Assembly: GCA_019058425.1 (NCBI GenBank)
Contig: JAHPYZ010000010.1
Coordinates: 18,874 to 82,873 of the forward strand
DNA: 64,000 nucleotides
Source: Promethearchaeota archaeon
GTDB taxonomy: Archaea > Asgardarchaeota > Lokiarchaeia > Sigyniarchaeales > SOKP01
Reading direction: 5' to 3'
Of this stretch, positions 22,038 through 35,032 are shown piece by piece. Numbering within the stretch: the stretch's first letter is position 1; each line of letters begins with the position of its first letter. Position numbers and translations under genes: made by a program. The notes beneath the pieces are model-generated. The model was not told the DNA's origin. It was given only the letters and a program-made list of their open reading frames with translations, and did not search any database.

Positions 22038-22516
22038 TCCTAATAAAAGTTCATATAGTCTTTGAAGATCTCTATCATCTTCAGCAATAAAAATTGTCCT
22101 TATTCTTATATCACCTACAGAGTATCTAAACCCCTCTTATATCACTTCTGCTTTAGATAATTCCAAGACAGAGTTTTATAATAATTAATTGTACAAACCT
22201 ATTACAGAATTATTACTATTTATGCTTTGACATTTAAAAAAAACCATTAACTCATGAGCTATATTATAAAACTATAAAAATAAGAAGTATTTGAAAGTAA
22301 TTATCGAAAATTTTTTTTGTAGTCAAACCTACATGAACTTAGAGGATGAGCTTTTATCTTTCACCCTTTTCATAAATAATAAAAAATTAGAAATTTTATA
22401 ACAATGCATAAAGAATAGCGAGGGCATAAAAAATTACACCAATATCATCTAGCAATGAAATTATTGATGATGAAAAAGAATCTATTGGAAAAAGTATAGA
22501 TATTACACCAGAACAG

Positions 22517-23047
22517 TTGATATTCAAATGGAAGTATCAAAATGTAGATAAGAAACTAACATATGACATAAAACGATGCATAGGATGTTCATTATGTAAA
22601 ATAATATGCCCTGTTGATGCTATTGAGCTCGGTCCAATTCCAGATATAGCACAGGGAATACTTGATGAAAATAATCCAAAAATTTTAGTAGATCATGATA
22701 AATGCTGTTATTGTATGTTATGCGCAGTAGTATGTCCAAATGATGCATTTCATGAAAATATTACTCCTGAAAACCAAATTGACCTCAAAGAATACCCGTC
22801 TATAGGAAAGTTTTATAAAATAGACATGGAAAAATGTATTGAAGATTCCAAAAATGAGATTTGCAAGCTATGTTTAAATGCTAGGGATAGAAATAATGTT
22901 AAAGAATTCTTTAAAATTCAAAAAGAGTGTCCCGTTGAATGTTTTTCAATTAATTCTCCGATAAAAGGAGAAGTAATTATAAAGAAAAAGAGGATTTTCA
23001 TTCATTTTTTTAAGTATCTCCGAATTTTTATTCATCCCTATTATTAA
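22517..23047 (+). pseudogene. 5' half of a polyferredoxin gene (truncated paralogue of 30142..31218)
   Basis: Aligns to residues ~30-187 of the intact copy, at about 75% nt identity by eye. It keeps CIGCSLCKIICP and CCYCMLCAVVCP. Homology stops at ~22990 (GEVIIKKK) and is followed by an unrelated 18-codon tail. Homology also extends upstream to ~22430 without a canonical start. Confidence 0.7.
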
Positions 23048-23153
23048 GTATCATAAGCTTGAATTTAAGTAGGAAATGATGTCATTACGAAATCTTATAA
23101 TAGCAATAATAAAAATCCCTTTTTTATTGCAACATCGTTTTCTCACATATTTT

Positions 23154-23321
23154 TCAAATTCTATCATCTAATTGCTTCCATGCAAACGTTAGATCTGATA
23201 TTGTATATCTTCCCCAAAATTTGTGGATATTCCGCTCTTTAGGGAGATGCCAGTTTGATCGCTTTGAGATCGCTGCAAATACTTTTACATGGGCGAAGAT
23301 ATCCATTTTCCGTGTGTTCAT
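23154..23321 (-). CDS. short 55-aa ORF of unknown function (possible gene remnant)
   Basis: My own translation is MNTRKMDIFAHVKVFAAISKRSNWHLPKERNIHKFWGRYTISDLTFAWKQLDDRI. Local GC is about 40% against about 28% in the flanks. It is below the size cutoff of the ORF track. Confidence 0.25.
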   Translation of the reverse strand: MNTRKMDIFAHVKVFAAISKRSNWHLPKERNIHKFWGRYTISDLTFAWKQLDDRI

Positions 23322-23513
23322 GTGTTTAGTTGGAAAATAAGCTTAATTAAATTAATGGAAACCTTTGTGTAAATCTTTCCTTTATCAAAACTCACTAGAA
23401 TTCTGCAAAATTAATTCTAGCATTGAAAATATTATATCCTCAACAATATGTTTTAAATACTCAAAAATTAGAAATTTTTAAATAACAAGGAAATAAGAGA
23501 AAAGTACGCATTA

Positions 23514-23585
23514 GTAAAATAAATTTCAAAAGACATTAATAAAAGTAAAATAAATTTCAAAAGACATTAATAAAAGTAAAATAAA
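23514..23585 (+). repeat. 31-nt tandem direct repeat, 2.3 copies
   Basis: The unit gtaaaataaatttcaaaagacattaataaaa occupies 23514-23544 and 23545-23575 with perfect identity. A 10-nt partial third copy runs straight into the ATG at 23586. Confidence 0.9.
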
Positions 23586-25940
23586 ATGATAGTAAGAAAA
23601 ATATTGGCTGCTTTGGGGGGGAGAGATGATGACCATATTTTACAATTTGGTAGCTATAAAATTGAAGGAGAATTAGGTCATGGACAACAAGGAATAGTTT
23701 TACTAATAAAAAATAAAATAGAAAAATATTTTGCTTTAAAAATTTATGACCCAAAAAGAGATGAGGACCCAAAAATTCTAAAGCATGGTATTGATGATTT
23801 TATAAGAGAAGTGTCGATTTTAGTTACAACTAACCATAAAAATATAGTTAAAATCTTTACCGGAGGATATGCACAATGGAAGAATGATTCTGCTTGGGAA
23901 ATAAACGAAAATTTTCCTGAAAACTTAGATAAAGTAATTACTGATGAGACTTTTATTTTTTATTATATAATGAATTATATCGAGGGTTCAAACTTAATAA
24001 AAATTTTTCCAATTTTAGAATATATTAATGATAATGACGAAGAGAAATGGAAAAGTTATCATGGAAAGTCCGATCATAAAGAAATCATACTATTCGAAAG
24101 ATTAATCACCCAAATGTGTAACACTTTAATTTATCATAATGAGGAGGAAATCGTACATAAAGATTTAAAATCAGAAAATATCCTTTATAGTAAACGGGAT
24201 TCTAATTTCATTATTGTAGATTATGGTTTTGCACATCATTACACATCCCCACAAATCAATGGTACCATTTTAAATACTAAAGTCCTCGATATTCCTTCCA
24301 TTAAAGCTCATAATTATGAAAAAATGGATATGGGTCAATTTTCTACGATATTGTTTTTTCTCTTACCATTTTTCAAAAATCAGTATGATAAATTGAGATA
24401 TGAAGGGATTCAAGCCACTATTGAAAGTGGTAGGAACGAAACTCTCGAACATCGATTTAAGGATATGTATGAATTTTACAATTCAATTAAACATAATTTT
24501 ATTACTGGAATTGAATGGAAATTTCAAGTGAAACTAGATGAATATATGGGGCCAAATAATTTTGGGAGATTTAACCAAAAATTAAGAATTCCCGTTTCTG
24601 GGTCAATAATATTAACTGAAGAAGTGAGAAAAATAATTGATACAACAGAGTTTCAAAGATTAAGAGGGGTTAGACAATTAGGACCAACAATTGAAGTATA
24701 TCCTGGAGCAAATCATACTCGATTTGAGCATTCATTGGGAACATACCATCTATCTCTAAAGTACTTAGAACGATTATTAAAAATACCTGATTTTAGAGAA
24801 ATATGCCAACCATTAGATGAATCTATTAAATATTTTATACTTTCTGCATTATTGCATGATATTGGTCATTATCCTTATTCCCATTGGATAGAAGAAATGG
24901 ATTTTGAAGATAATATTTCATTTCCAAAACATGAAGAAAGAGCCGAGATTATTCTTAAAAAAAAAGAAATTAAGGATATCATCGAAAATGTTTGGAATGT
25001 TGATATAGATACGATTTCAGCGATAATTAGAGGTGATGAGATTTTCGAAGAGCAAGTAATTATGAACTCATTTATTAATTCAATAATAGATGTAGATAAG
25101 CTAGATTATCTAGTGCGCGATAGTATCCACTGTGGTGTGAATTATGGAAAAGGAATCGATATTGAACGATTTCTTGATTCATTATATTATATAAAGACCT
25201 CTAAACAAATAGCATTAACCGAGAAGGGTCGTACAGCCTTGTTATCATTATTAACATGCAGAAATATTCTTTATACATCGGTCTATTGGCATAAAACAGT
25301 AAGAGCTTGTGAAGCGATGTTTAAACGATATTTTTTTGAATACGTAGAAATAAATAAAAATAAATTAGAATATATTGAAAGTATATTTAATTTATCAGAT
25401 GACCATTTTGTTTTTACATTATATAATGATCTTAAAGATAATCCCTGTAATTTCTCTAATTTAATCTTGCCTTTTGTGTTTGGAGAAAGTTCTAGAGTGT
25501 TATATAAACCAATATATATTCATTATTTTTTTGGTCTATATATTGAAAAAAAACCTTATCATAACACATCAAAGTTCTTTGATTCTTTGCTTGATTATAG
25601 TTATGTAAAACTTGTAAAAGTTAGTAACGAATTAGTGAAAACTTTAAAAGTGATTATTCCTGAATTAAATGATCACGACATTTTAATAGAAAAAACCCCA
25701 ATAAAACTTCATCATGAAGAATATAAATTAAATCAATTCCAAATCTGGGATCAAAGACAAAAAAGACTAGAAAGTGTTCCTACAGAAGTTAAAACCCTTA
25801 ATACATATTTGAAAACATTCAAACAAGCATATATCTTCTGTAATCCAATATATAGCGAGCAACTAAAAGAAATTTTCCTCGATGATAAACAAAGAGAAAA
25901 AATTTTGGCTGTTATCAATAAAACAATAAAAAATTTATAG
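23586..25940 (+). CDS. Ser/Thr protein kinase fused to SAMHD1-like HD-domain dNTP triphosphohydrolase
   Basis: The N-terminal ~300 aa carry the Gly loop LGHGQQGIV, the VAIK-type lysine FALKIY, the catalytic loop HKDLKSENIL and DYGFA (DFG-like). The C-terminal part aligns by eye to the SAMHD1 core: TTEFQRLRGVRQLG, PGANHTRFEHSLGTYHL, LLHDIGHYPYSH and DVDKLDYLVRD. All His/Asp metal ligands are present. Confidence 0.85.
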   Translation: MIVRKILAALGGRDDDHILQFGSYKIEGELGHGQQGIVLLIKNKIEKYFALKIYDPKRDEDPKILKHGIDDFIREVSILVTTNHKNIVKIFTGGYAQWKNDSAWEINENFPENLDKVITDETFIFYYIMNYIEGSNLIKIFPILEYINDNDEEKWKSYHGKSDHKEIILFERLITQMCNTLIYHNEEEIVHKDLKSENILYSKRDSNFIIVDYGFAHHYTSPQINGTILNTKVLDIPSIKAHNYEKMDMGQFSTILFFLLPFFKNQYDKLRYEGIQATIESGRNETLEHRFKDMYEFYNSIKHNFITGIEWKFQVKLDEYMGPNNFGRFNQKLRIPVSGSIILTEEVRKIIDTTEFQRLRGVRQLGPTIEVYPGANHTRFEHSLGTYHLSLKYLERLLKIPDFREICQPLDESIKYFILSALLHDIGHYPYSHWIEEMDFEDNISFPKHEERAEIILKKKEIKDIIENVWNVDIDTISAIIRGDEIFEEQVIMNSFINSIIDVDKLDYLVRDSIHCGVNYGKGIDIERFLDSLYYIKTSKQIALTEKGRTALLSLLTCRNILYTSVYWHKTVRACEAMFKRYFFEYVEINKNKLEYIESIFNLSDDHFVFTLYNDLKDNPCNFSNLILPFVFGESSRVLYKPIYIHYFFGLYIEKKPYHNTSKFFDSLLDYSYVKLVKVSNELVKTLKVIIPELNDHDILIEKTPIKLHHEEYKLNQFQIWDQRQKRLESVPTEVKTLNTYLKTFKQAYIFCNPIYSEQLKEIFLDDKQREKILAVINKTIKNL

Positions 25941-26031
25941 AATTAAGATTTTTTAAATAAATTTTATTTTGATGAGATTAATAACCCTTATTAGTAGAAA
26001 ACCTTGAAATTTCATAGGTGATTTGTTTAAA

Positions 26032-26160
26032 ATGGAAAGAGTGGAGTTGCGGGTTCTTGCAAAGAACTTTAATGCAATAAAAGCTGTTTCTAATTATGTA
26101 GATTCTGTATATCTTGGAAGTGAAGAGATTAAAATTAGAATGCTTTCAAAAAATGATTAG
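26032..26160 (+). pseudogene. 42-codon fragment resembling the N-terminus of a peptidase U32 family protein
   Basis: My own translation is MERVELRVLAKNFNAIKAVSNYVDSVYLGSEEIKIRMLSKND. It resembles the ELLAPAG..E.lkAAi..GADaVYlG start of U32 proteins and then terminates. Confidence 0.3.
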
Positions 26161-26193
26161 AGGAATAAGAGATTTCATTAACATAAATCCAAC

Positions 26194-26730
26194 TTAAATT
26201 ATTTCTGGTTCTTTTAAAATCTCATACCATCTTTGGATTTTAGAAAACCATCTCTCAATTGCATTCACACCATCTACTAAAGCACCCTTACTTTGTTGGA
26301 TATAACCCAATATTTGGGGATTTATACTGGTTGCAATATTTTCCCCACATCTAAAATCGCTTCTTAAAGCAAAAATCGGTCCCCGTTCAATTCCAGTATA
26401 ATATCCAATTTCACTTGCGACACCATCATCAATTTGATGTCCTCCATCTAAAACTGCTAGGAGACAATCAGAATCACGCATTAGCATATTATTTATATGG
26501 GGAATTTTATTATTAAATTCGATGCAATATTTTAATCTATCCTCATATTTTTCTAATTTTGATAAATAATCATTATTAAATTTTTTTCCACACTCTAAAA
26601 ATGGATCATTTATAAGAATTCCAATTTCTTGGATTTTTGGCTTAATTAATTTTTCCAAAACATACCTTCCAGTTTCAGAGAATCCAAATTGATTTGCGAG
26701 ATATGCTTTTACTTGCTTCATATTATTCAA
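26194..26730 (-). CDS. nucleoside 2-deoxyribosyltransferase / DNPH1(Rcl)-family protein
   Basis: N-terminal YLANQFGF (YxAGPxF-like) and the catalytic-Glu region LDGGHQIDDGVASEIGYYTG...GPIFAL, as in PF05014-type proteins. Confidence 0.7.
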   Translation of the reverse strand: MNNMKQVKAYLANQFGFSETGRYVLEKLIKPKIQEIGILINDPFLECGKKFNNDYLSKLEKYEDRLKYCIEFNNKIPHINNMLMRDSDCLLAVLDGGHQIDDGVASEIGYYTGIERGPIFALRSDFRCGENIATSINPQILGYIQQSKGALVDGVNAIERWFSKIQRWYEILKEPEII

Positions 26731-26896
26731 ACTAGAATATCTATTATTTGTTAAAATTTATATTCTTTCTCAGCAGAAAAAACTTGTTCTTCTAGGAAGG
26801 ATTTGTTATTGATCTTAATTCTTAAATTCTTATTCGATTCTGATCGTAAATTAATTCTTTAGCCTCTACTGTTAAAGCCTTTATCTCGGAGTTCTA

Positions 26897-27268
26897 CTAA
26901 TTCTTCGGTATTCTGGTCACTTTTCCAAGCAGTAAAAAAGTGTTTAGATTAAGACAATTGACTTGAACCTGGATTATTATTTTCTGGAAAAATAATTGCA
27001 TAATAAATGTTTCTTTATGTTGTAATTTTAATTTAATTCGGATATCATAAAGTAGATCTTTTACAATAATACAAATGTCTTCTGTAACTTCAAAAATTCC
27101 TCGTCCAGTGTTAAATACATAAGTAATAATATCCATCTGTTCATGGATAAAAATTAGATCACATTCCTCACAAGCAACTCCAATACTAAATCTAGGCTTA
27201 TAGGTATATGGGGGATTATTTATTTTCTTAAAACAAATTGAACACTCATCAAATCCTTTTATTAGCAC
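26897..27268 (-). CDS. small Cys-rich (Zn-ribbon-like) hypothetical protein
   Basis: GTG start. CSIC...(20 aa)...CEEC sits in the N-terminal half. The C-terminal half is low complexity, so the true length is uncertain. Confidence 0.35.
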   Translation of the reverse strand: MLIKGFDECSICFKKINNPPYTYKPRFSIGVACEECDLIFIHEQMDIITYVFNTGRGIFEVTEDICIIVKDLLYDIRIKLKLQHKETFIMQLFFQKIIIQVQVNCLNLNTFLLLGKVTRIPKN

Positions 27269-27587
27269 AAATTAAAATTGAGTATTTTGTATCTAATGAA
27301 ACTTTTTTATTCCTATTTTTATACATTATATCAATATGTTAGAATGGAATAACTTTTAGCAATTAATTAGAGTTATCATGATAAACGTTAGAGAATTTAG
27401 CAATATGATACTCAAGAGTTGGATCACAAAATTCTTATAGAGATTACAGATAAATAAAAGATTTTTTTATAAATTTAAAAAGATCATAGTAATAATATTA
27501 ATAGGAATAAAAGTTTCATACAAAATTGCGATTTACTCTGTAAATATTTCAGGTAAATCATATCTAATTCAGACAGGGTATTTTAAT

Positions 27588-29978
27588 ATGAAAGATAGTA
27601 AGAACCTTAATTGTCCAGCAAAGAACCGATCTAAAATTAGGTGCTATAATCCAAATTCATCTAATTCTAAAAAGTATTGGGAAAATAATTCCATTCAAAA
27701 AAAAAATCCAATTTTTAATTTTCAAAATTATAATTCATATATTTATAGAAATGAGATTTTTGAATATATTGTTAAAAATATATATACATTGATTTCTGAA
27801 TTAAAATGTAAATTAAATAAATCGTTTCAAGTAGAATGCATTCATATATATGATAACATTTTAATTTCAATACCATATGACAACCAAAATAAAAAATTTA
27901 ATTACTTCTATCAAAGTTTTGGATCTAGAAATGTAAAAAATCCGAAATATATCGCTGCTTCATTAATATATTTCAATTTCGTTAGATCAGGAGAAAATAT
28001 TAAGCGTAAATTGTTAGTGAGAATTTTAAGTTTAAATTTATCAAGTTTTAATCGTGTGTGTTCTACTATTTCCAACTATCTAAAAAGAATCCCTGAATAT
28101 GATTTCATTTTTGAGTTTATAAATGCCGATAGGCTAACTGAAGATGAATATCTTGTACTAACAAATAAATATATTACTAGATACATAGATTATCTGAATA
28201 GTAAAAATCCTGATTATATCAATTTTTCGAGCAGTGATGATGAATCTATTTTCGATTTGGTTTTGAACATCATAGGATCTATAGAAGGTGAGGACAAATT
28301 TCAACTTTTTTTTGAAAGTTTAAAAAAAAAGAAGCCAAAAATATTAGCAGCAGTAATGTGTTTTATTTTCCTAAAATATGAAAAAGATATTAAATTGAGT
28401 AAAACCTATTTTCTTGATTTATTGCTTGAAAATAATTATTTTTATATACCACCAACTAACTTCACCGAAGTCTTACATCAAATAATAGTAGAATTTTTTG
28501 TATTAGATCAAGATAAATATCAGAAGAAAGTTGAACATTATTTAATTCAATACATTATTGAATTAGAATCTTATTTCTGTTCTCATTTAAATAACCTTAA
28601 AGATGATTTAATTGATAAAGGAATAGCTATCTTTGATTACGCTATAATAAATGATTTTCCAATCTTGGATAAAAATAAAAATAACGAAATAGATTATTAT
28701 TTTCCCCAGAATTTCGCTTTTTCTTTACTTTACTTCACCTTTAAAACTACAAAAGGATTAGGAGATTTAGCAACTCCCACGAAATTGGACCAATGTTTTG
28801 GATCTGAATTTAATTTTAAACATGTGAATGATCGAAACAGTAATCGGTTATATGATTATATATCAGATTACATAGGAAGATATAAAGGGCAGATATATAG
28901 TAGAGACACTTTTATTAAAATGATGAGAAAATCTTTGAAAGGATTTTATCACATTGAGACTCATTTTTTACTTGAATTATATCAATCTTTAGAATTGGAA
29001 CCAAAAGAATTTGGAGATAAATTATATATTCACAATACACCTGGAACCAGTGGCGTATTACGTGTAATTCGAAATAAAACATCGTTTAGCGACCCTAATA
29101 CATTTGAAAATATTCGTGATTTTATAAGAACAAATCATATAGGACATCATAAAAATTACTTTATTGATTGGATTAATAATATACAAGAATTAAAGCGAAA
29201 GGATTTTAAACATCAAAGTATTACTTATCCGTTTAGATGGAAAGAAGAACGTTTAGATATCATTAATGACAATCAATTGAGATTAGGACTTTATAGCTTT
29301 CTTAATGATATTTGGAGAGAAAACTTTCCTCGTGATATATTCATGTCTAGTGATAATCCCAGAGCATCAATGCTAAAATTTTATGGATCCTATGAAGAAC
29401 ATTTAAAATTTGATAACATAGAAGACTTCTTTAAAGATGAACTAAAAACATATGATTCATCCTTTTTTCTGTGTAAACACGTTCAAAAAGTTTTTGAGTA
29501 TTATAAAAGAAATAGAATAGGTAAAAGACCGGACCATCCACCGATTTTGGCTTATATAATAAAAAATAATAATAATACTATAGCAATTGAATCACCAGTT
29601 TGGAAGCCTATTGAAAATTCAGATTTATTTAATATTGGGCATATAGATATTATTCTTTTCATAAATGGATATTTAATAATTGCCGATTATAAGCAAAATG
29701 AGGATAAGATATATAGATCACTACCACAACTCACTACTTATGGCATATTATTAAAAGATAGATTAGAAGATTATTATGTCCCCATTAACAACAATATTTT
29801 GTGTATAGGTTTTAGTAAAGATTTAGCATATTCATTCAATCCTGAAGATTTATATCCTAAACTTCTACAATTTGTTAAATTCATGAATTCACAACGAATA
29901 TCTTCCTTGAAAAGTAGAAAAATCCCAAAAAAAACAATAAGAACAGATCTTTATTCTGATTTAAAAAACTTGAAATGA
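27588..29978 (+). CDS. large protein with C-terminal RecB/Cas4-type PD-(D/E)xK nuclease domain and N-terminal TFIIB/cyclin-box-like repeats
   Basis: The C-terminus has all four RecB-family motifs in order: IAIESPVW (E), GHIDIILF (hhD), IIADYKQ (D/ExK) and QLTTYGILL (QxxxY). The N-terminal two thirds carry recurring K-x-P-K-x-[IL]-A-A-x-h-x-[YF] motifs (KNPKYIAASLIYF, KKPKILAAVMCFIF, and a weaker NFAFSLLYFTF). These resemble the GKSPxxhAAAhhYhA signature of TFB/TFIIB cyclin repeats. Confidence 0.7.
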   Translation: MKDSKNLNCPAKNRSKIRCYNPNSSNSKKYWENNSIQKKNPIFNFQNYNSYIYRNEIFEYIVKNIYTLISELKCKLNKSFQVECIHIYDNILISIPYDNQNKKFNYFYQSFGSRNVKNPKYIAASLIYFNFVRSGENIKRKLLVRILSLNLSSFNRVCSTISNYLKRIPEYDFIFEFINADRLTEDEYLVLTNKYITRYIDYLNSKNPDYINFSSSDDESIFDLVLNIIGSIEGEDKFQLFFESLKKKKPKILAAVMCFIFLKYEKDIKLSKTYFLDLLLENNYFYIPPTNFTEVLHQIIVEFFVLDQDKYQKKVEHYLIQYIIELESYFCSHLNNLKDDLIDKGIAIFDYAIINDFPILDKNKNNEIDYYFPQNFAFSLLYFTFKTTKGLGDLATPTKLDQCFGSEFNFKHVNDRNSNRLYDYISDYIGRYKGQIYSRDTFIKMMRKSLKGFYHIETHFLLELYQSLELEPKEFGDKLYIHNTPGTSGVLRVIRNKTSFSDPNTFENIRDFIRTNHIGHHKNYFIDWINNIQELKRKDFKHQSITYPFRWKEERLDIINDNQLRLGLYSFLNDIWRENFPRDIFMSSDNPRASMLKFYGSYEEHLKFDNIEDFFKDELKTYDSSFFLCKHVQKVFEYYKRNRIGKRPDHPPILAYIIKNNNNTIAIESPVWKPIENSDLFNIGHIDIILFINGYLIIADYKQNEDKIYRSLPQLTTYGILLKDRLEDYYVPINNNILCIGFSKDLAYSFNPEDLYPKLLQFVKFMNSQRISSLKSRKIPKKTIRTDLYSDLKNLK

Positions 29979-30141
29979 AGAATATCAAGAGATCATAAAT
30001 ATATTCAACGTTATGGTCAATAATATATTTTATTTATAATAATAAGAAGATTACTAGTTTTTTACGTCTAACTTATAACAATTAATCTTATTTGAAATTA
30101 AATAATACGATAATTAGATATATTTCATATTTATTACAGGA

Positions 30142-31218
30142 TTGGTAAAGATTACTTCTGACTTAAAAATAGAAAAAGAACAGGATAAGGAAGATATAAT
30201 AGAAAAAATTTTAGATATAGATCCAGATCAATTAATTTTAAATTGGAAATTTAAGAATGTAAACAAAAAGCTAACCTATGATATTAAAAAGTGTATAGGG
30301 TGTAGTTTATGTAAACTAGTCTGTCCTGTTAATGCAATAGAGTTAGGCCCCATCCCTGATATTGCTCAAGAAAAAATTGATAAAAGTAATCCCAAAATAC
30401 TAATAGACCATGAGAAATGTTGTTACTGTATGCTATGTGCAATAGTTTGTCCTAACGATGCATTTCATGAGAATATAGAGCCAGAAGGCCAAATTGACCT
30501 AAATGAATTTCCAACCATTGGAAAATTCTACAAGTTAGATTTGGACAAGTGCATCGAAGATGAGAAAATTGAAATTTGTAAATTATGTTTAGATGTCCGA
30601 AAAAGAAACAATATTGAAGAATATTACAAAATTGGAAAAGAATGTCCAGTTAAGTGTTTTCATATTGACTCCCCAATTCAAGGAGAAGTCATCATAAAAA
30701 AGAATATGTTGCACAAATGCACTCCTGAAAATTGTAAAGCTTGCATTAATATCTGCCCAACTGAATCCTTTTTTATTCCTGAAAGTGCTGAAGATGTGAA
30801 AAAATATGGAAAAATTGCATGTAATGAAGATGAATGTTTTTACTGTGGAGCTTGTGAAAATTCTTGTCCTGATGATTTAATACTTGTTGATCGAAAGGAG
30901 GTTGAGATCCTAGATCCTAAAAAGCCTGGTAACTATCCATGGGTACAAGGATGGACAGTTAGTATAAAAGAAATACTGAGAAAAGCATTAATTCGGGGTA
31001 AAAAACAAATAGAAATTCCAATTATTGAAGAGGAAGTTAAAAAACTAAAGGAAAAAATTGAAGATACAATACCTCAATTATCAAAAGAAGACCGAGAAAA
31101 ATTGAATGAGTTAGATAATAAAATTCAAAATTTCCTTAGATCTCCAAAAATTAGATATTGGATAAAGGATAAAAAAACAGATAAAATAAGAAAAGAATTG
31201 AAAAAGCTCTTAACTTAA
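30142..31218 (+). CDS. polyferredoxin (four 4Fe-4S cluster motifs), intact copy
   Basis: CIGCSLCKLVCP, CCYCMLCAIVCP, CKACINICP and CFYCGACENSCP, followed by a Lys/Glu-rich C-terminal tail. TTG start. Confidence 0.85.
   Translation: MVKITSDLKIEKEQDKEDIIEKILDIDPDQLILNWKFKNVNKKLTYDIKKCIGCSLCKLVCPVNAIELGPIPDIAQEKIDKSNPKILIDHEKCCYCMLCAIVCPNDAFHENIEPEGQIDLNEFPTIGKFYKLDLDKCIEDEKIEICKLCLDVRKRNNIEEYYKIGKECPVKCFHIDSPIQGEVIIKKNMLHKCTPENCKACINICPTESFFIPESAEDVKKYGKIACNEDECFYCGACENSCPDDLILVDRKEVEILDPKKPGNYPWVQGWTVSIKEILRKALIRGKKQIEIPIIEEEVKKLKEKIEDTIPQLSKEDREKLNELDNKIQNFLRSPKIRYWIKDKKTDKIRKELKKLLT
30787..31111 (+). repeat. 325-bp direct repeat, copy A (inside the intact polyferredoxin gene)
   Basis: A base-by-base comparison with 34592-34916 gives a constant offset of 3805, 258 bp identical (30787-31044), then mismatches at 31045 and 31072. 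Confidence 0.9.
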
Positions 31219-31365
31219 CTTTTCAATTATTATAAAAAGATAGAAATAAAAATTTCAGGAAATATAATCAATTCTCCAAAACAAAAATGTCAATATGATA
31301 GTTGGATGAATTAATGTTCAATCTCCATATAAACTCAATTATACCAAAGAAAACTCTGCAAATAA

Positions 31366-31779
31366 TCACTTGATGGGAACACCAGATTTGCTTAAAATTA
31401 TTCCTTCTATAACATCTTCTAACTCTTTCAGCTGCATTACTGGTTTAGAACTATGATAAATAAACCTTAATTGCGGGGGAATCTGTCCAGGAACCTTTCT
31501 TTTTATTTCCTCAATCGATATTTTAACTTTGAAAATCTTTTCAAAAAGTTCAGGTGACCCAGAGATTGATAGAGTAACTCCTTTACCCTCGATTGTAAAT
31601 CCACGTTTTTTAAGTTCTGATATAACTCTTTGTATAGTTTGGGGAGATGATATGAATGGTTTTGGATCGGTGCCTACGATACCCTCCTGTAAAAGAGAAC
31701 GACCAGACAACGACCTCAAATAAACTGTTGCCATGATTCTTTTTTGGCTAGATTGATTTTTATCTTCACTTTTACCCAT
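31366..31779 (-). CDS. stand-alone subtilase pro-domain-like protein (paralogue of the N-terminus of 31823..34309)
   Basis: ATVYLRSLSGRS...ISSPQTIQRVISELKKRGFTIEGKGVTLSISGSPELFEKIFKVKISIEEIKRKVP aligns with ASVILKSKSGLS...LPENKSIKSTVNLLNEAGFDIEAQTDVGISFSGPKELFESEFGVTISKREIKIKRP of the neighbouring protease. The pattern resembles the pro-kumamolisin-type activation domain. Confidence 0.55.
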   Translation of the reverse strand: MGKSEDKNQSSQKRIMATVYLRSLSGRSLLQEGIVGTDPKPFISSPQTIQRVISELKKRGFTIEGKGVTLSISGSPELFEKIFKVKISIEEIKRKVPGQIPPQLRFIYHSSKPVMQLKELEDVIEGIILSKSGVPIK

Positions 31780-31822
31780 TTAATTGGCACTCTTCTTTTT
31801 ATACATAAATTAAATTTGTTAT

Positions 31823-34309
31823 TTATCGTTTTGATTCTCCTAAGCAATGGGCACAATTATCATATCTGTGTCGATGGGCTTGGGGTATATCACCGAATGG
31901 TTTTCTATTATAAGGACTCATCATATTCATCCAAGCACAAGTTTTGTTATGAACTTCCTTAGTTTTTCGATTCCCAACAAAAGCATAATGGGATATATTA
32001 ATCATTTCAGTAAAACTACCAATTTGTTCACCATCTATTAGTAGTGTAGCACGAATTGGATATGCTCCGTCTGGAGTGTTTTCAGGTACAGTGTAGTAGA
32101 TAGTAACTTTTGTTTTCTCATTGGATTTAAAATCCATTCCTCCTAGCGAACCCATTTTTCCGATATGAGACAGTGTAGAATAAAGGCTACTTTCATGAAT
32201 GACATTCATATTATTCAATGTTGCTGAATGCGTTAACCGTTTGATCATTCTGACCAAAACTTCTGATTTTGGAGCAAACTTGGTAAGATCCACTTGAAGA
32301 TCAGCTTGATGATATTTACCTAATGGACCTTCCATATAAAAACTGAAGGAAGAAGTCCCACCAGGAATAATATCTACGATTGTAATGTTCTTCCACGCAA
32401 CATTGTTCTTATCCCGAACCATTTTCCTGAAATCAGCAGCAGTTTGAATTGCGTTTAAATCTGGAGCAGGATCATCAGGACTATCTAAAATACTAATCAA
32501 ACAAAAATGACCTGTTCTAGGAATTTGAGCATCTGACCAGATGATAGGTCCAATAACCCGGAATTCACCTGGTTCCAGATTTTGTATATCAGTTTGCCCA
32601 ATCTCCTCCCAACCTGCTGGATTGGGTAGCATACCAGGAATTGTGAAGTATACAGTTGCTGTACAACTTCCAATAACTGTACCACGGTTCTGAACTCGCA
32701 AATAAACATAATTGTCTTGTCCATCTTCTACTTGATCACTTAAATCGTGCCGATGCTTAACAGTTATTCCCAACATTTCTGAAGGATCAACTAATTCCTC
32801 AGTACGTACAATTATATCTGGACTAGCCCACAAACGGTTTAGAACTACTGGCTCTGTTCCATTATCCTCGATACTATCGCGTATATAAGCATTGAACTTA
32901 TCTTGCTGTAGAAAGTTTAATGCAGCTTCTCCATCAATTAGACCAAATCCAGTCGCGGCATCCCATCCAATTGTTGCGTTATCTGGACCTGCACTATTAC
33001 TTGAACCGGTTTGAATGTCTTGAGATGAATTCTCTAGGATGTTTTTTACTGCCATGGGAGTTAGATTTGGATGTTGCTCCAGTATTAAAGCACAAATGCC
33101 AGCAGTTTGTGGAGCAGCTGCAGATGTCCCACTACATGCACACCATCCATCATTAGGTGCAGTATTATCCCCTAAAGGAAATGCTTGAGCCGCTAAACCC
33201 TGATCCATTGTACAATCCGGTTCAGTAGGCAACATGATTAATATTGCTGCAGGAATCTCACCAACTAGGCCTACAACATCAGGGCAATGTCTCTGAGGAT
33301 TAGTATAGACAAAACTATCGTAACTACTGGCATAATTAGAAGCACGAAATCCTCCGCCCTGAATTGGATAAGCACCGCCAACTGATATCAAGCTGGGATG
33401 AGCAAGTGATTGAACTGACATTGCTGGATCATCAGTATGTCCATTACCTGCTGCAAAGATAACCACAATACCATTAGCTACAGCATTAGCGATCTCTAGA
33501 AGCAGTGCGAGATCCTGACCTCCAGAACCCCAACTACAAGTAATGATATCTGGATTTTGATACTGTACAGCAGCTTGAAATCCAGCTAAAGGAAAGTTAT
33601 TCCATCCTCCATCTGTATATTTAACAAATGAGAAAGTAGCTCCTGGTGCTACAGCTAAGATATTTGCAGCCATTGCTGTTCCATGTCCATATTCATCAAC
33701 ATTTTCATTTAGTCCACCCACAGCTCTAATATCATCAATATTATACCCTTGGGCTGAATAGTAGGGATGTTGGAAGAAACCAGTATCAACCATTGAGATG
33801 CGTACACCAGCACCGGTGATTCCAGCACCATGTAGGGTTGAAACGTTAAGTATCGTCGGGACATCGTTCAGCACGTTTAGAAAATAGTAAGACGGATTAG
33901 GGGTGGGAGGATTTGGGTCTTGAAAAGGAAAAGCAGGAATAGCCAGCTGGACGGATTCAACAAGCTCAGAAATTCGGTTACTAATCATTTTTGGTTGACT
34001 AGCCTCAAAAAATGAAACCGAACGTTCTGCAATTTCTGGTCTTTTAATCTTAATCTCCCGTTTACTAATAGTAACTCCAAATTCAGATTCAAAGAGTTCT
34101 TTAGGACCAGAGAATGAGATTCCTACATCAGTTTGTGCTTCAATATCAAATCCTGCTTCATTCAATAAGTTAACTGTGCTTTTAATACTTTTATTTTCAG
34201 GTAAGAATTCATCCAATGCACTAAATGAGAATTTATCAAGATCTTTTTCAATAGACAATCCACTCTTTGATTTTAATATCACTGAGGCTATGACTTTTTC
34301 ATCAACCAT
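31823..34309 (-). CDS. S8 family subtilisin-like serine protease, no signal peptide, with C-terminal extension and Ada-like Zn motif
   Basis: Catalytic triad in D-H-S order: RISMVDTGF, YGHGTAMAANI, CSGTSAAAPQTAG, with oxyanion FAAGNGH. The N-terminus MVDEKVIASVILK lacks a hydrophobic leader. The tail is HNKTCAWMNMMSPYNRKPFGDIPQAHRHRYDNCAHCLG. GC is visibly higher (about 43%) than the surroundings. Confidence 0.9.
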   Translation of the reverse strand: MVDEKVIASVILKSKSGLSIEKDLDKFSFSALDEFLPENKSIKSTVNLLNEAGFDIEAQTDVGISFSGPKELFESEFGVTISKREIKIKRPEIAERSVSFFEASQPKMISNRISELVESVQLAIPAFPFQDPNPPTPNPSYYFLNVLNDVPTILNVSTLHGAGITGAGVRISMVDTGFFQHPYYSAQGYNIDDIRAVGGLNENVDEYGHGTAMAANILAVAPGATFSFVKYTDGGWNNFPLAGFQAAVQYQNPDIITCSWGSGGQDLALLLEIANAVANGIVVIFAAGNGHTDDPAMSVQSLAHPSLISVGGAYPIQGGGFRASNYASSYDSFVYTNPQRHCPDVVGLVGEIPAAILIMLPTEPDCTMDQGLAAQAFPLGDNTAPNDGWCACSGTSAAAPQTAGICALILEQHPNLTPMAVKNILENSSQDIQTGSSNSAGPDNATIGWDAATGFGLIDGEAALNFLQQDKFNAYIRDSIEDNGTEPVVLNRLWASPDIIVRTEELVDPSEMLGITVKHRHDLSDQVEDGQDNYVYLRVQNRGTVIGSCTATVYFTIPGMLPNPAGWEEIGQTDIQNLEPGEFRVIGPIIWSDAQIPRTGHFCLISILDSPDDPAPDLNAIQTAADFRKMVRDKNNVAWKNITIVDIIPGGTSSFSFYMEGPLGKYHQADLQVDLTKFAPKSEVLVRMIKRLTHSATLNNMNVIHESSLYSTLSHIGKMGSLGGMDFKSNEKTKVTIYYTVPENTPDGAYPIRATLLIDGEQIGSFTEMINISHYAFVGNRKTKEVHNKTCAWMNMMSPYNRKPFGDIPQAHRHRYDNCAHCLGESKR

Positions 34310-34549
34310 TTTTTACTCCACTCAAAATATAGATTAAGTTTAATGTGTTGTTTTTAATATAAATTATTTTGAAAATATCTATAAAATACATACAATTAAT
34401 CACCCTCCTTTAATAATTTAATATGGATTTTTAGAAAAATTTGACGCTAATGTATATTATACAAATTTGTTATTTAATAATTACTAAATTATTCCTTTTA
34501 AATAATTCATATAATTGAATAGTATATTAAAAGAGATTTCGAGTCTTTT

Positions 34550-35032
34550 ATGAAATTTTGTCCTTCTGAATCTTTTTTCATCCCTGAGAGCGCTGAAGAT
34601 GTGAAAAAATATGGAAAAATTGCATGTAATGAAGATGAATGTTTTTACTGTGGAGCTTGTGAAAATTCTTGTCCTGATGATTTAATACTTGTTGATCGAA
34701 AGGAGGTTGAGATCCTAGATCCTAAAAAGCCTGGTAACTATCCATGGGTACAAGGATGGACAGTTAGTATAAAAGAAATACTGAGAAAAGCATTAATTCG
34801 GGGTAAAAAACAAATAGAAATTCCAATTATTGAAGAGGAAGTTAAAAAATTAAAGGAAAAAATTGAAGATACAATACTTCAATTATCAAAAGAAGACCGA
34901 GAAAAATTGAATGAGTAAAATGAAAAAATTCAAGATTTCCTTAGATCTCCAAAAATTAGATATTGGATAAAAGACAAAAAAACATATAAGATTGCTAATG
35001 AATTGAATAAATTTCTTAAAAAAAAAAAATAA
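34550..35032 (+). pseudogene. 3' half of a polyferredoxin gene (continuation of the 22517 fragment) with an in-frame TAA
   Basis: Aligns to residues ~205-358 of the intact copy. It keeps CFYCGACENSCP. At 34916 a TAA replaces the TTA of the intact copy, and the reading frame stays homologous beyond it up to the TAA at 35030. Confidence 0.75.
34592..34916 (+). repeat. 325-bp direct repeat, copy B
   Basis: Near-identical to 30787-31111 (2 mismatches before the TTA/TAA difference). The sequence on both sides of the tract is homologous but much more diverged. Confidence 0.9.

Follow-up and report, generated by a model that had tools for sequence, protein, structure and literature searches.

A TFIIB-like/RecB-type nuclease and its linked polyferredoxin allele as the conserved core of a gene-splitting island in Asgard archaea: a tentative case for homing

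As far as genomic arrangement is concerned, a close parallel to the gene considered here is the intronless homing of free-standing endonucleases of the phage T4 SegF, SegG and MobE type; as far as the fold of its repeats is concerned, it is the TFB/TFIIB core, the promoter-recognition module common to archaea and eukaryotes, whose second repeat reads the B recognition element (BRE) in a real TFB. The gene in question, P0001, lies in a 64,000-nucleotide (nt) stretch of a Promethearchaeota archaeon genome (NCBI GenBank assembly GCA_019058425.1, contig JAHPYZ010000010.1, positions 18,874 to 82,873; hereafter “the window”), which has a G+C content of ~30%, contains no tRNA genes and belongs to contig C115 of a 4.6-Mb assembly of 143 contigs. 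It encodes 796 amino acids (aa) joining TFIIB-like repeats to a RecB-type nuclease, and it sits on an island that splits a polyferredoxin gene, an arrangement for which a homing-type mechanism is tentatively favored below. To our knowledge, this is the first case of a TFB/TFIIB core fold joined to a nuclease, encountered, moreover, in the archaeal lineage closest to eukaryotes; a literature search returned no description of a TFIIB-like/RecB nuclease fusion, and a preliminary description of the window knew of no housekeeping precedent for it.

The open reading frame (ORF) that the preliminary description had placed at 27588-29978 is indeed open and intact. Sequence comparisons identify its product as a predicted multidomain DNA nuclease confined to Asgard archaea (Promethearchaeota), in which three cyclin-type repeats, with the TFB/TFIIB core as their nearest relative, and a novel helical domain precede a RecB-type nuclease. 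There are eight close homologues (48-75% identity), whereas a search of 1.84 billion proteins, taken as 50%-identity representatives, yielded 174 family relatives; the named homologues that were looked up are annotated only as “hypothetical protein [Promethearchaeota archaeon]”. Neither NCBIfam, nor the PADLOC models, nor the PDB sequences gave a match to P0001, and Pfam offered only the sub-threshold PDDEXK_1 and CAP-like_CFAP184, the latter of which falls inside the second repeat and was treated as noise. An AlphaFold2 (AF2) model built on a 56-sequence family alignment has a mean predicted local distance difference test score (pLDDT) of 88.1, and the layout of the gene, with isoelectric points (pI) where informative, is as follows:

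27588..29978, plus strand: whole gene P0001, an open ORF of 796 aa (TFIIB-like repeats, helical domain, RecB-type nuclease)
27588..27734, plus strand: basic disordered N-terminus, residues 1-49 (pLDDT <50 for residues 1-45; pI 10.0)
27807..28097, plus strand: repeat R1, residues 74-170, cyclin/TFIIB-type, basic (pI 9.8), with the helix KNPKYIAASLIYFNF
28125..28505, plus strand: repeat R2, residues 180-306, second cyclin-type repeat, acidic (pI 4.8), carrying KKKPKILAAVMCFIFL
28506..28655, plus strand: helical hairpin, residues 307-356 (model helices 308-330 and 332-354)
28656..28892, plus strand: repeat R3, residues 357-435, partial third repeat with YYFPQNFAFSLLYFTF, from hhalign against R1
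28893..29192, plus strand: helical domain M2, residues 436-535, matching no known fold
29193..29912, plus strand: RecB-type PD-(D/E)xK nuclease module, residues 536-775 (from motifs, PDDEXK_1 and Foldseek)
29589-29591, 29646-29648 and 29685-29687, plus strand: predicted catalytic codons E668, D687 and D700
29691-29693, 29727-29729 and 29739-29741, plus strand: predicted catalytic codons K702, Q714 and Y718

The first 49 residues, a segment variable or absent across homologues, carry just two cysteines and are therefore not a Zn ribbon; no Pfam TF_Zn_Ribbon match was found in P0001 either. Residues 352-548, modelled separately by AF2 (pLDDT 85), resemble no known fold (best Foldseek PDB match at E 1.4, probability 0.21), and the bromodomain/NusB-like bundles among the matches, all at E>1, were dismissed as meaningless, so that the case for the third repeat comes from hhalign alone.

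The nuclease module is the part that all relatives have in common: the shared region consists of the C-terminal ~240 residues, is always at the C-terminus, and in about half of the relatives makes up a stand-alone protein of ~240-290 aa aligning from residue ~535 on. The four RecB-family PD-(D/E)xK motifs recognized in the preliminary description are present in the right order and conserved in about 100 relatives: IAIESP (E668), GHIDII (D687), IIADYKQ (D700, K702) and LPQLTTYG (Q714, Y718). These six residues are invariant in nine close homologues; in the 56-sequence alignment, where identity falls to ~20%, E668, D687, K702, Q714 and Y718 are conserved at >=90%, as are H650, P670, W672, G684 and C739; and in 25 stand-alone relatives, G684, H685, D687 and Y718 are invariant, with E668, D700, K702 and Q714 at >=90%, and R592 and S594 invariant as well. 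Alignment depth of this kind puts the conservation of the motifs far beyond chance, and the catalytic motifs of the RecB-type domain are intact. Pfam PDDEXK_1 (PF12705) does not reach its gathering score on P0001 (16.3 bits vs the cut-off of 22) and matches 33 of 56 and 17 of 25 relatives weakly (best E 2.1e-5); a profile search of the module against PDB sequences gave no match. The model, on the other hand, has a strand-strand-strand-helix-strand core at residues 664-750, that is, the restriction-endonuclease-like fold that had been expected of the C-terminal domain, and Foldseek retrieves Cas4 (4ic1, 4r5q), RecE, MGME1, AdnAB and RecBCD from the PDB (probability 0.84-1.0 for Cas4, RecE and MGME1) and many viral RecB/Cas4-type nucleases from BFVD. 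As there is no four-cysteine cluster (C739 being the only conserved cysteine), the module is to be regarded as a RecB/RecE/MGME1-like nuclease and not as Cas4 proper; the Cas4 family PF01930 matches 3 of 56 relatives weakly, and no cas genes were found near P0001.

For the N-terminal region, the suspicion had been that two, possibly three, K-x-P-K-x-[IL]-A-A elements resemble the cyclin repeats of TFB/TFIIB. Sub-alignments of the family alignment, run in hhalign against six aligned TFBs of the source genome, bear this out: residues 55-175 match the second TFB cyclin repeat at 94.1% (E 1.3e-7, 85 columns) vs 50.8% for the first, residues 55-300 match both TFB repeats at 72.5% (148 columns), and R1 taken by itself matches the TFBs of its own genome at 92-94%. 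The repeats number three, since R1 matches R2 at 98.2% (E 3.8e-14, 77 columns) and R3 at 91.1% (E 1e-6, 50 columns), vs a maximum of 0.5% for 30 column-shuffled versions and a reversed alignment; the remaining helical parts of P0001 stay below 3% against TFB. A PDB profile search found TFIIB weakly (E 0.26-0.8), and Foldseek against the PDB ranked the TFIIB, TFB and Brf2 cores (~250 columns, probability ~1.0, target-normalised template modelling score up to 0.46) above cyclins T and K, the top BFVD match overall being a mimivirus TFIIB-repeat protein (E 3.2e-4). The same two fold groups, TFIIB/TFB/Brf2 and Cas4/RecE/MGME1/RecB, were thus retrieved by the model in two independent libraries, and by profile and predicted structure the two tandem cyclin-fold repeats qualify as homologous to the TFB core.

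Pfam TFIIB (PF00382) does not match P0001 at E<=1, nor at E<=10 in a scan of the whole genome, in which 22 stretches match, 18 of them over the cut-off, in about nine TFB genes, and it matches a single one of 56 relatives (E 0.016). These TFB paralogues, about nine in number and with complete Pfam TFIIB repeats, are spread over several contigs of the source genome (L006-L013). The Zn ribbon, B-reader and B-linker are all absent from P0001, and its R2, in which the motif PxTNFTExxHQ is invariant among close homologues, has a pI of 4.8 vs about 10 for the TFB cores of the same genome; by these sequence features P0001 is, in functional terms, not a TFB. Among relatives, the repeats range from zero to four, and one long form (L033 8193-10547, G071:C69) has four R1/R2-type repeats in a row before the nuclease, from which it follows that repeat number varies within the family. 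Another relative, P0045 (L050 8001-11918, 1305 aa), retains the entire TFIIB-like N-terminal region (R1-R2-hairpin-R3-M2), its nuclease being replaced by a different C-terminus of ~770 residues without Pfam domains.

The genomic setting of P0001 is that of an island within a native polyferredoxin gene. DNA homology to the empty sites ends at position 22989 and resumes at 34557, and the island therefore corresponds to window positions ~22990-34556:

~22990..34556: 11.6-kb island splitting the native polyferredoxin gene
22466..22989, plus strand: 5' fragment of the native polyferredoxin gene, residues ~14-187, with the native-type signature
30142..31218, plus strand: P0003, the island-type polyferredoxin allele, intact and separated from the upstream nuclease gene by 163 bp
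30721-30732, plus strand: variant codons T194-P-E-N197 of P0003
34557..35030, plus strand: 3' fragment of the split polyferredoxin gene, residues ~203-357, part of which matches the island allele at 96% identity

In order, the island contains a kinase-HD fusion, an NDT-like gene, a 123-aa ORF, P0001, the intact ferredoxin allele, a 137-aa ORF and an S8 subtilase. The empty site is seen in three genomes of the same genus, where the flanks are collinear, the ferredoxin gene is single and intact and the island is absent, the order there being CDC48, a helix-turn-helix gene, a 166-aa ORF, a 98-aa ORF, ferredoxin and a 95-aa ORF, with M54 beyond it where the sequence extends that far. Of 46 genomes of the genus, 44 have a single, intact copy of the ferredoxin gene, and a match, nearly always single and full-length, is present in 125 of 135 genomes of the family; several assemblies have contig breaks inside it, at residues ~172-206.

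The 5' fragment in the window is 81.5% identical to the native gene of genome G207 and 75% to the island allele (75% also for ORF 22517-23047 against P0003 residues 31-187), whereas ORF 34550-34918, within the 3' fragment, is 96% identical to P0003 residues 202-323, the usual level between native genes and the island allele being about 75%; the 96% patch looks like a recent gene conversion between the two ferredoxin copies. No integrase was seen among the genes scanned, and neither a tyrosine nor a serine recombinase was found. Aloposons, which are Asgard elements with giant genes and tRNA targets (PMC8813620), were considered as the identity of the island and, given exactly these features, set aside as unrelated.

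Genomes G351 and G359, which are from another genus and hold P0004 and P0005, have islands at the same locus and in the same ferredoxin gene, laid out as a ferredoxin 5' fragment, DUF4062 plus NACHT-LRR or Metallophos-TPR cargo, the nuclease and an intact ferredoxin gene. The nuclease and the intact ferredoxin allele are all that these islands share with that of the window, whose cargo has no homologues in them; an intact ferredoxin gene also follows P0011, a protein 48% identical to P0001. P0001 and the intact ferredoxin allele downstream of it are thus the conserved core of the island, at a site that recurs in other genomes.

The site itself can be narrowed down considerably. Native genes read ...AAATGC GAT CCN CAR GGN TGY AAA GC... 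there (for example, AAATGCGATCCACAAGGATGTAAAGCTTGTGTT, vs AAATGCACTCCTGAAAATTGTAAAGCTTGCATT in the island allele), and the 5' fragments in G359 and G327, which are from different genera and have different adjoining DNA, end after GGN(T), <=1 nt apart; the window (source genome G000) lacks 47 bp spanning this break point. In each of the 24 native genes whose motif can be read, which come from two genera, the encoded sequence is K-C-D-P-Q-G-C-K-A-C, whereas all five nuclease-linked alleles encode K-C-[T/S]-P-E-N-C-K at the break site, and in a ferredoxin tree, the nuclease-linked alleles form a clade of their own (98/83), with the native genes grouping by genus. Two further genomes have a single ferredoxin gene with the T-P-E-N site at the native locus and no nuclease nearby: in G345 (L091 10122-11174) it is an island-type allele, and in G219 (L092 8270-9355) it is a three-part mosaic with native ends and an island-type tract from ~nt 180 to nt 600, which ends at the site.

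An all-against-all comparison within the other long-form loci, that is, those in which the nuclease module carries an N-terminal extension, revealed one further case of this kind, in the clade of P0013 and the nuclease of G319 (72% identical to each other), where the duplicated gene is a GH57 gene:

L095 3363-18616 (G319) and L041 596-12102: GH57 split-gene, nuclease and intact-copy layout

Here, an intact, co-oriented 402-aa GH57 gene lies downstream of the nuclease and is followed by AbiJ, and fragments of a second copy are found on the two sides in G319 (residues 3-68 and 221-402) and on the one side that is covered in the P0013 contig (~198-402). Of the 46 genus genomes searched, 25 have this GH57 gene as a single intact copy. 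In G319, G207 and the P0013 contig, the break points lie close together, at DGETFG|HH, and immediately upstream of them the sequence of the duplicated alleles is RLKY..T..D.Y, vs RLYY[KR]HTSEDYYV in native genes. HerA-like ATPases were considered as another target gene and rejected, no HerA fragments being present in the available flanks, and the polyferredoxin was rejected as a general functional partner of the nuclease, being linked only in the P0001 clade and not in six more distant long-form loci.

The genomic position usually expected of a homing endonuclease gene is found here: it lies at or beside the candidate target, the site is intact elsewhere, and the allele that accompanies the gene differs at that site. 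P0001 may accordingly be read as a homing-type, site-specific nuclease of gene-targeting islands, a reading which, judged from sequence comparisons, seems to fall somewhat short of probable and which is favored because it alone accounts for the pairing of nuclease and allele, the allele differences at the break and the repetition of the layout with GH57. As the nuclease and the variant ferredoxin allele are the sole constants of islands at one precise spot, it might even be a new kind of homing nuclease. Under such a mechanism, P0001 would act as the island's site-specific, homing-type endonuclease; its repeats, all of which end in a pair of helices comparable to the BRE-reading pair of TFB, would recognize the native ...AAATGC GAT CCN CAR GGN^TGY AAA GC..., and the RecB-type domain would cut the native ferredoxin gene there; repair of the break would capture or copy the island, the allele of which (ACT CCT GAA AAT at the site) would resist cutting and take over from the broken gene, and the variable defence-type cargo would hitch-hike. 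That it is P0001 that makes the cut, and its repeats that read the DNA, we infer from sequence.

Several observations weigh against this. The left junction sequences differ between genomes, the break points of G000 and G351 are offset or eroded, and the native gene is split and not cleanly replaced, unlike in classical homing. The island also lacks defined ends, having no terminal inverted or direct repeats and no target-site duplications (a 24-nt, 88%-complementary pair at its ends, in AT-rich DNA, was judged unconvincing), and the shared layout could stem from the common descent of one island spread via flanking homology. Furthermore, G207 (L107) and G219 (L108) have a GH57 fragment and an intact copy with no nuclease nearby, six other long-form loci have no ferredoxin neighbour, nine have no duplicated gene flanking the nuclease within the sequence covered, and in several of these loci restriction-modification (RM), Abi or HerA-like genes lie next to the nuclease, which is what one would expect of an ordinary defence gene.

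The last point leads to the chief rival, in which P0001 would be a stand-alone immune effector, i.e., a resident defence-island nuclease whose repeats sense or bind some feature of the invader, the island having been placed by another mechanism. The company that the family keeps speaks for it: a kinase-HD dNTPase and an NDT-like gene in the window; NACHT-LRR, Metallophos-TPR and SLFN/AlbA as neighbours of family members; MmeI-type and MjaI RM systems, AbiJ, DUF4145 and a pPIWI-associated nuclease next to the distant long forms; and HerA-like (DUF87/FtsK) ATPases directly downstream in three long-form loci (L029 5162-6898, L031 5535-7217 and L050 12115-14049). The patchy distribution of the gene, with no more than 10 of the 135 genomes in the taxonomic family of the window having the TFIIB-like N-terminal region and its nearest orthologues (67-71% identity) in another genus (vs 33% for the best match in the same genus), is likewise suggestive, marking the long form as an accessory gene with a distribution like that of horizontal transfer; it speaks for the homing reading as well. 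P0001, however, matches no PADLOC model, and an immune role leaves unexplained why the nuclease and the replacement allele should be the only constants of the island, why the linked alleles differ exactly at the break point and why the layout recurs with GH57; all in all, this explanation seems possible yet rather unlikely.

The two others rank as less likely than either homing or defence. A repair or recombination role, with P0001 as a paralogue of the universal stand-alone nuclease and its helical repeats as a protein-interaction scaffold, might be suggested by the family as a whole: its profile matches 142 of 301 genomes of the phylum, and almost all genomes of the taxonomic family to which the window belongs have one copy of the ~245-aa stand-alone form, including the source genome (C59:17528-18259; locus L028 8065-8793), where its gene neighbourhood is uninformative. 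HerA-type ATPases, being partners of end-resection nucleases, could be read in the same way at the loci that they adjoin, and so could a 764-aa protein with the same C-terminal nuclease encoded between uvrB and uvrA on the same strand (L034 4740-12236, G162:C147); the N-terminal 440 residues of the latter, however, are unrelated and free of TFIIB-like repeats, for which reason the locus was discarded as evidence for repair. As only ~7% of related genomes have the TFIIB-like form, which lies on an acquired island, and as the nuclease-module tree places 22 stand-alone proteins in one supported clade with the long forms making up the remainder, this role appears improbable. The least probable is the one that the preliminary description had put forward, namely that the TFB-like domain binds to TBP/promoter complexes, or acts as a TFB mimic, and so guides the nuclease to host or viral transcription initiation sites. 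The repeats are indeed closest to the TFB/TFIIB cores, the genome has its about nine TFB paralogues, and archaeal viruses and conjugative elements, an Asgard virus among them, encode TFBs of their own (PMC13700489, PMC6563490), but the absence of the Zn ribbon, B-reader, B-linker and Pfam TFIIB match, the acidic second repeat where TFB cores have a pI of about 10, and the repeat number (three vs two, with four or fewer in relatives) all argue otherwise. Neither TBP nor transcription genes are linked to P0001. The targeting of TBP/BRE complexes or mimicry of TFB found no support, and comparative genomics suggests instead that P0001 acts at one particular site in the chromosomal DNA.

Whether or not the homing reading is correct, the analysis defines a large nuclease family with a near-universal stand-alone core member, which is also present in a second family of the phylum and is a conserved Asgard gene. 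If it is correct, the short list of homing nucleases would gain a new enzyme class, the presence of integrase-free defence islands at the same spot across genera would be explained, and the repeats would represent a DNA-recognition scaffold; as the target gene seems to differ from one related clade to another, this scaffold may be open to retargeting. One might go further and suppose, more doubtfully, that TFIIB-like/RecB nucleases in general are an unrecognised homing class with the TFB fold as a programmable DNA-recognition module, each clade cutting one conserved host gene (polyferredoxin, GH57 and others) and thereby driving an integrase-free island with a cut-resistant allele and exchangeable defence cargo, so that immune genes would be spread among Asgard archaea; this generalization, drawn from comparison of sequences, should be taken as speculative.

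Some further features of the island and of related loci are worth recording. The first cargo gene, at 23586-25940 on the plus strand, encodes 784 aa with a kinase and an HD/HD-associated (SAMHD1-like dNTPase) region, its kinase part matching the PADLOC models mad6, PD-T4-6 and MkoA, and a perfect 31-nt tandem duplication (23513-23574) lies just 5' of its start codon. At the other end, the S8 subtilase (31823-34309, minus strand, 828 aa) adjoins the 137-aa ORF (31366-31779, minus strand), which aligns over 128 residues, at ~30% identity, with the first ~130 residues of the subtilase. The HerA-like ATPases near long forms, among them a fourth one 2.7 kb downstream of its long form (L049 13069-14577), match the PADLOC HerA and mad8 models, and downstream of one nuclease-HerA pair (L029 and L096, G273:C66 ~10.7-32.6 kb) there are six paralogous genes of 560-690 aa, 32-45% identical to each other and interleaved with highly similar short segments.

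Set against the systems that are already known, P0001 shares with the RecB-family nucleases (Cas4 SSO0001 4IC1, Pcal_0546 4R5Q, RecE, MGME1 and the RecB/AddB domains) the motif order E...GxhD...(D/E)xK...QxxxY and, in the model, the restriction-endonuclease-like fold, but it differs from Cas4 in having no four-cysteine Fe-S cluster and from the group as a whole in a ~115-residue N-terminal subdomain of the family's own, with the invariant R592 and S594, and in the absence of a cas or helicase context. With the TFB/TFIIB/Brf core (PF00382; 1AIS, 1D3U, 1VOL, 5WH1, 4ROD), which is the best profile and fold match of its repeats, it has in common the tandem five-helix cyclin-type repeats, the G/K-x-P-x-x-h-A-A-x-h-Y helix and the helix pair after each repeat, whereas the Zn ribbon, B-reader and B-linker are missing, every Pfam threshold is undershot, the repeats are three instead of two with the second one acidic, and the gene is accessory and nuclease-fused instead of core. 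Integrative genomic islands with gene replacement likewise occupy a conserved single-copy gene site-specifically, leave empty sites in relatives and carry variable defence-type cargo, but neither a tyrosine or serine recombinase nor att-type direct repeats could be found in the islands of P0001, which carry a complete replacement gene in place of a short duplicated end. From the T4 enzymes of the SegF/SegG/MobE type, finally, and from the GIY-YIG, HNH and LAGLIDADG classes in general, P0001 differs in belonging to an unrelated class built of TFIIB-like repeats and a RecB-type domain, with cleavage predicted from sequence, and in leaving the native gene split around 7-14 kb of cargo and a whole replacement gene; what it shares with the intronless homing of these enzymes is a nuclease gene beside a variant allele of a gene that is interrupted or converted elsewhere, polymorphisms concentrated at the break site of the ferredoxin gene and, in G219, a mosaic that resembles a conversion tract.

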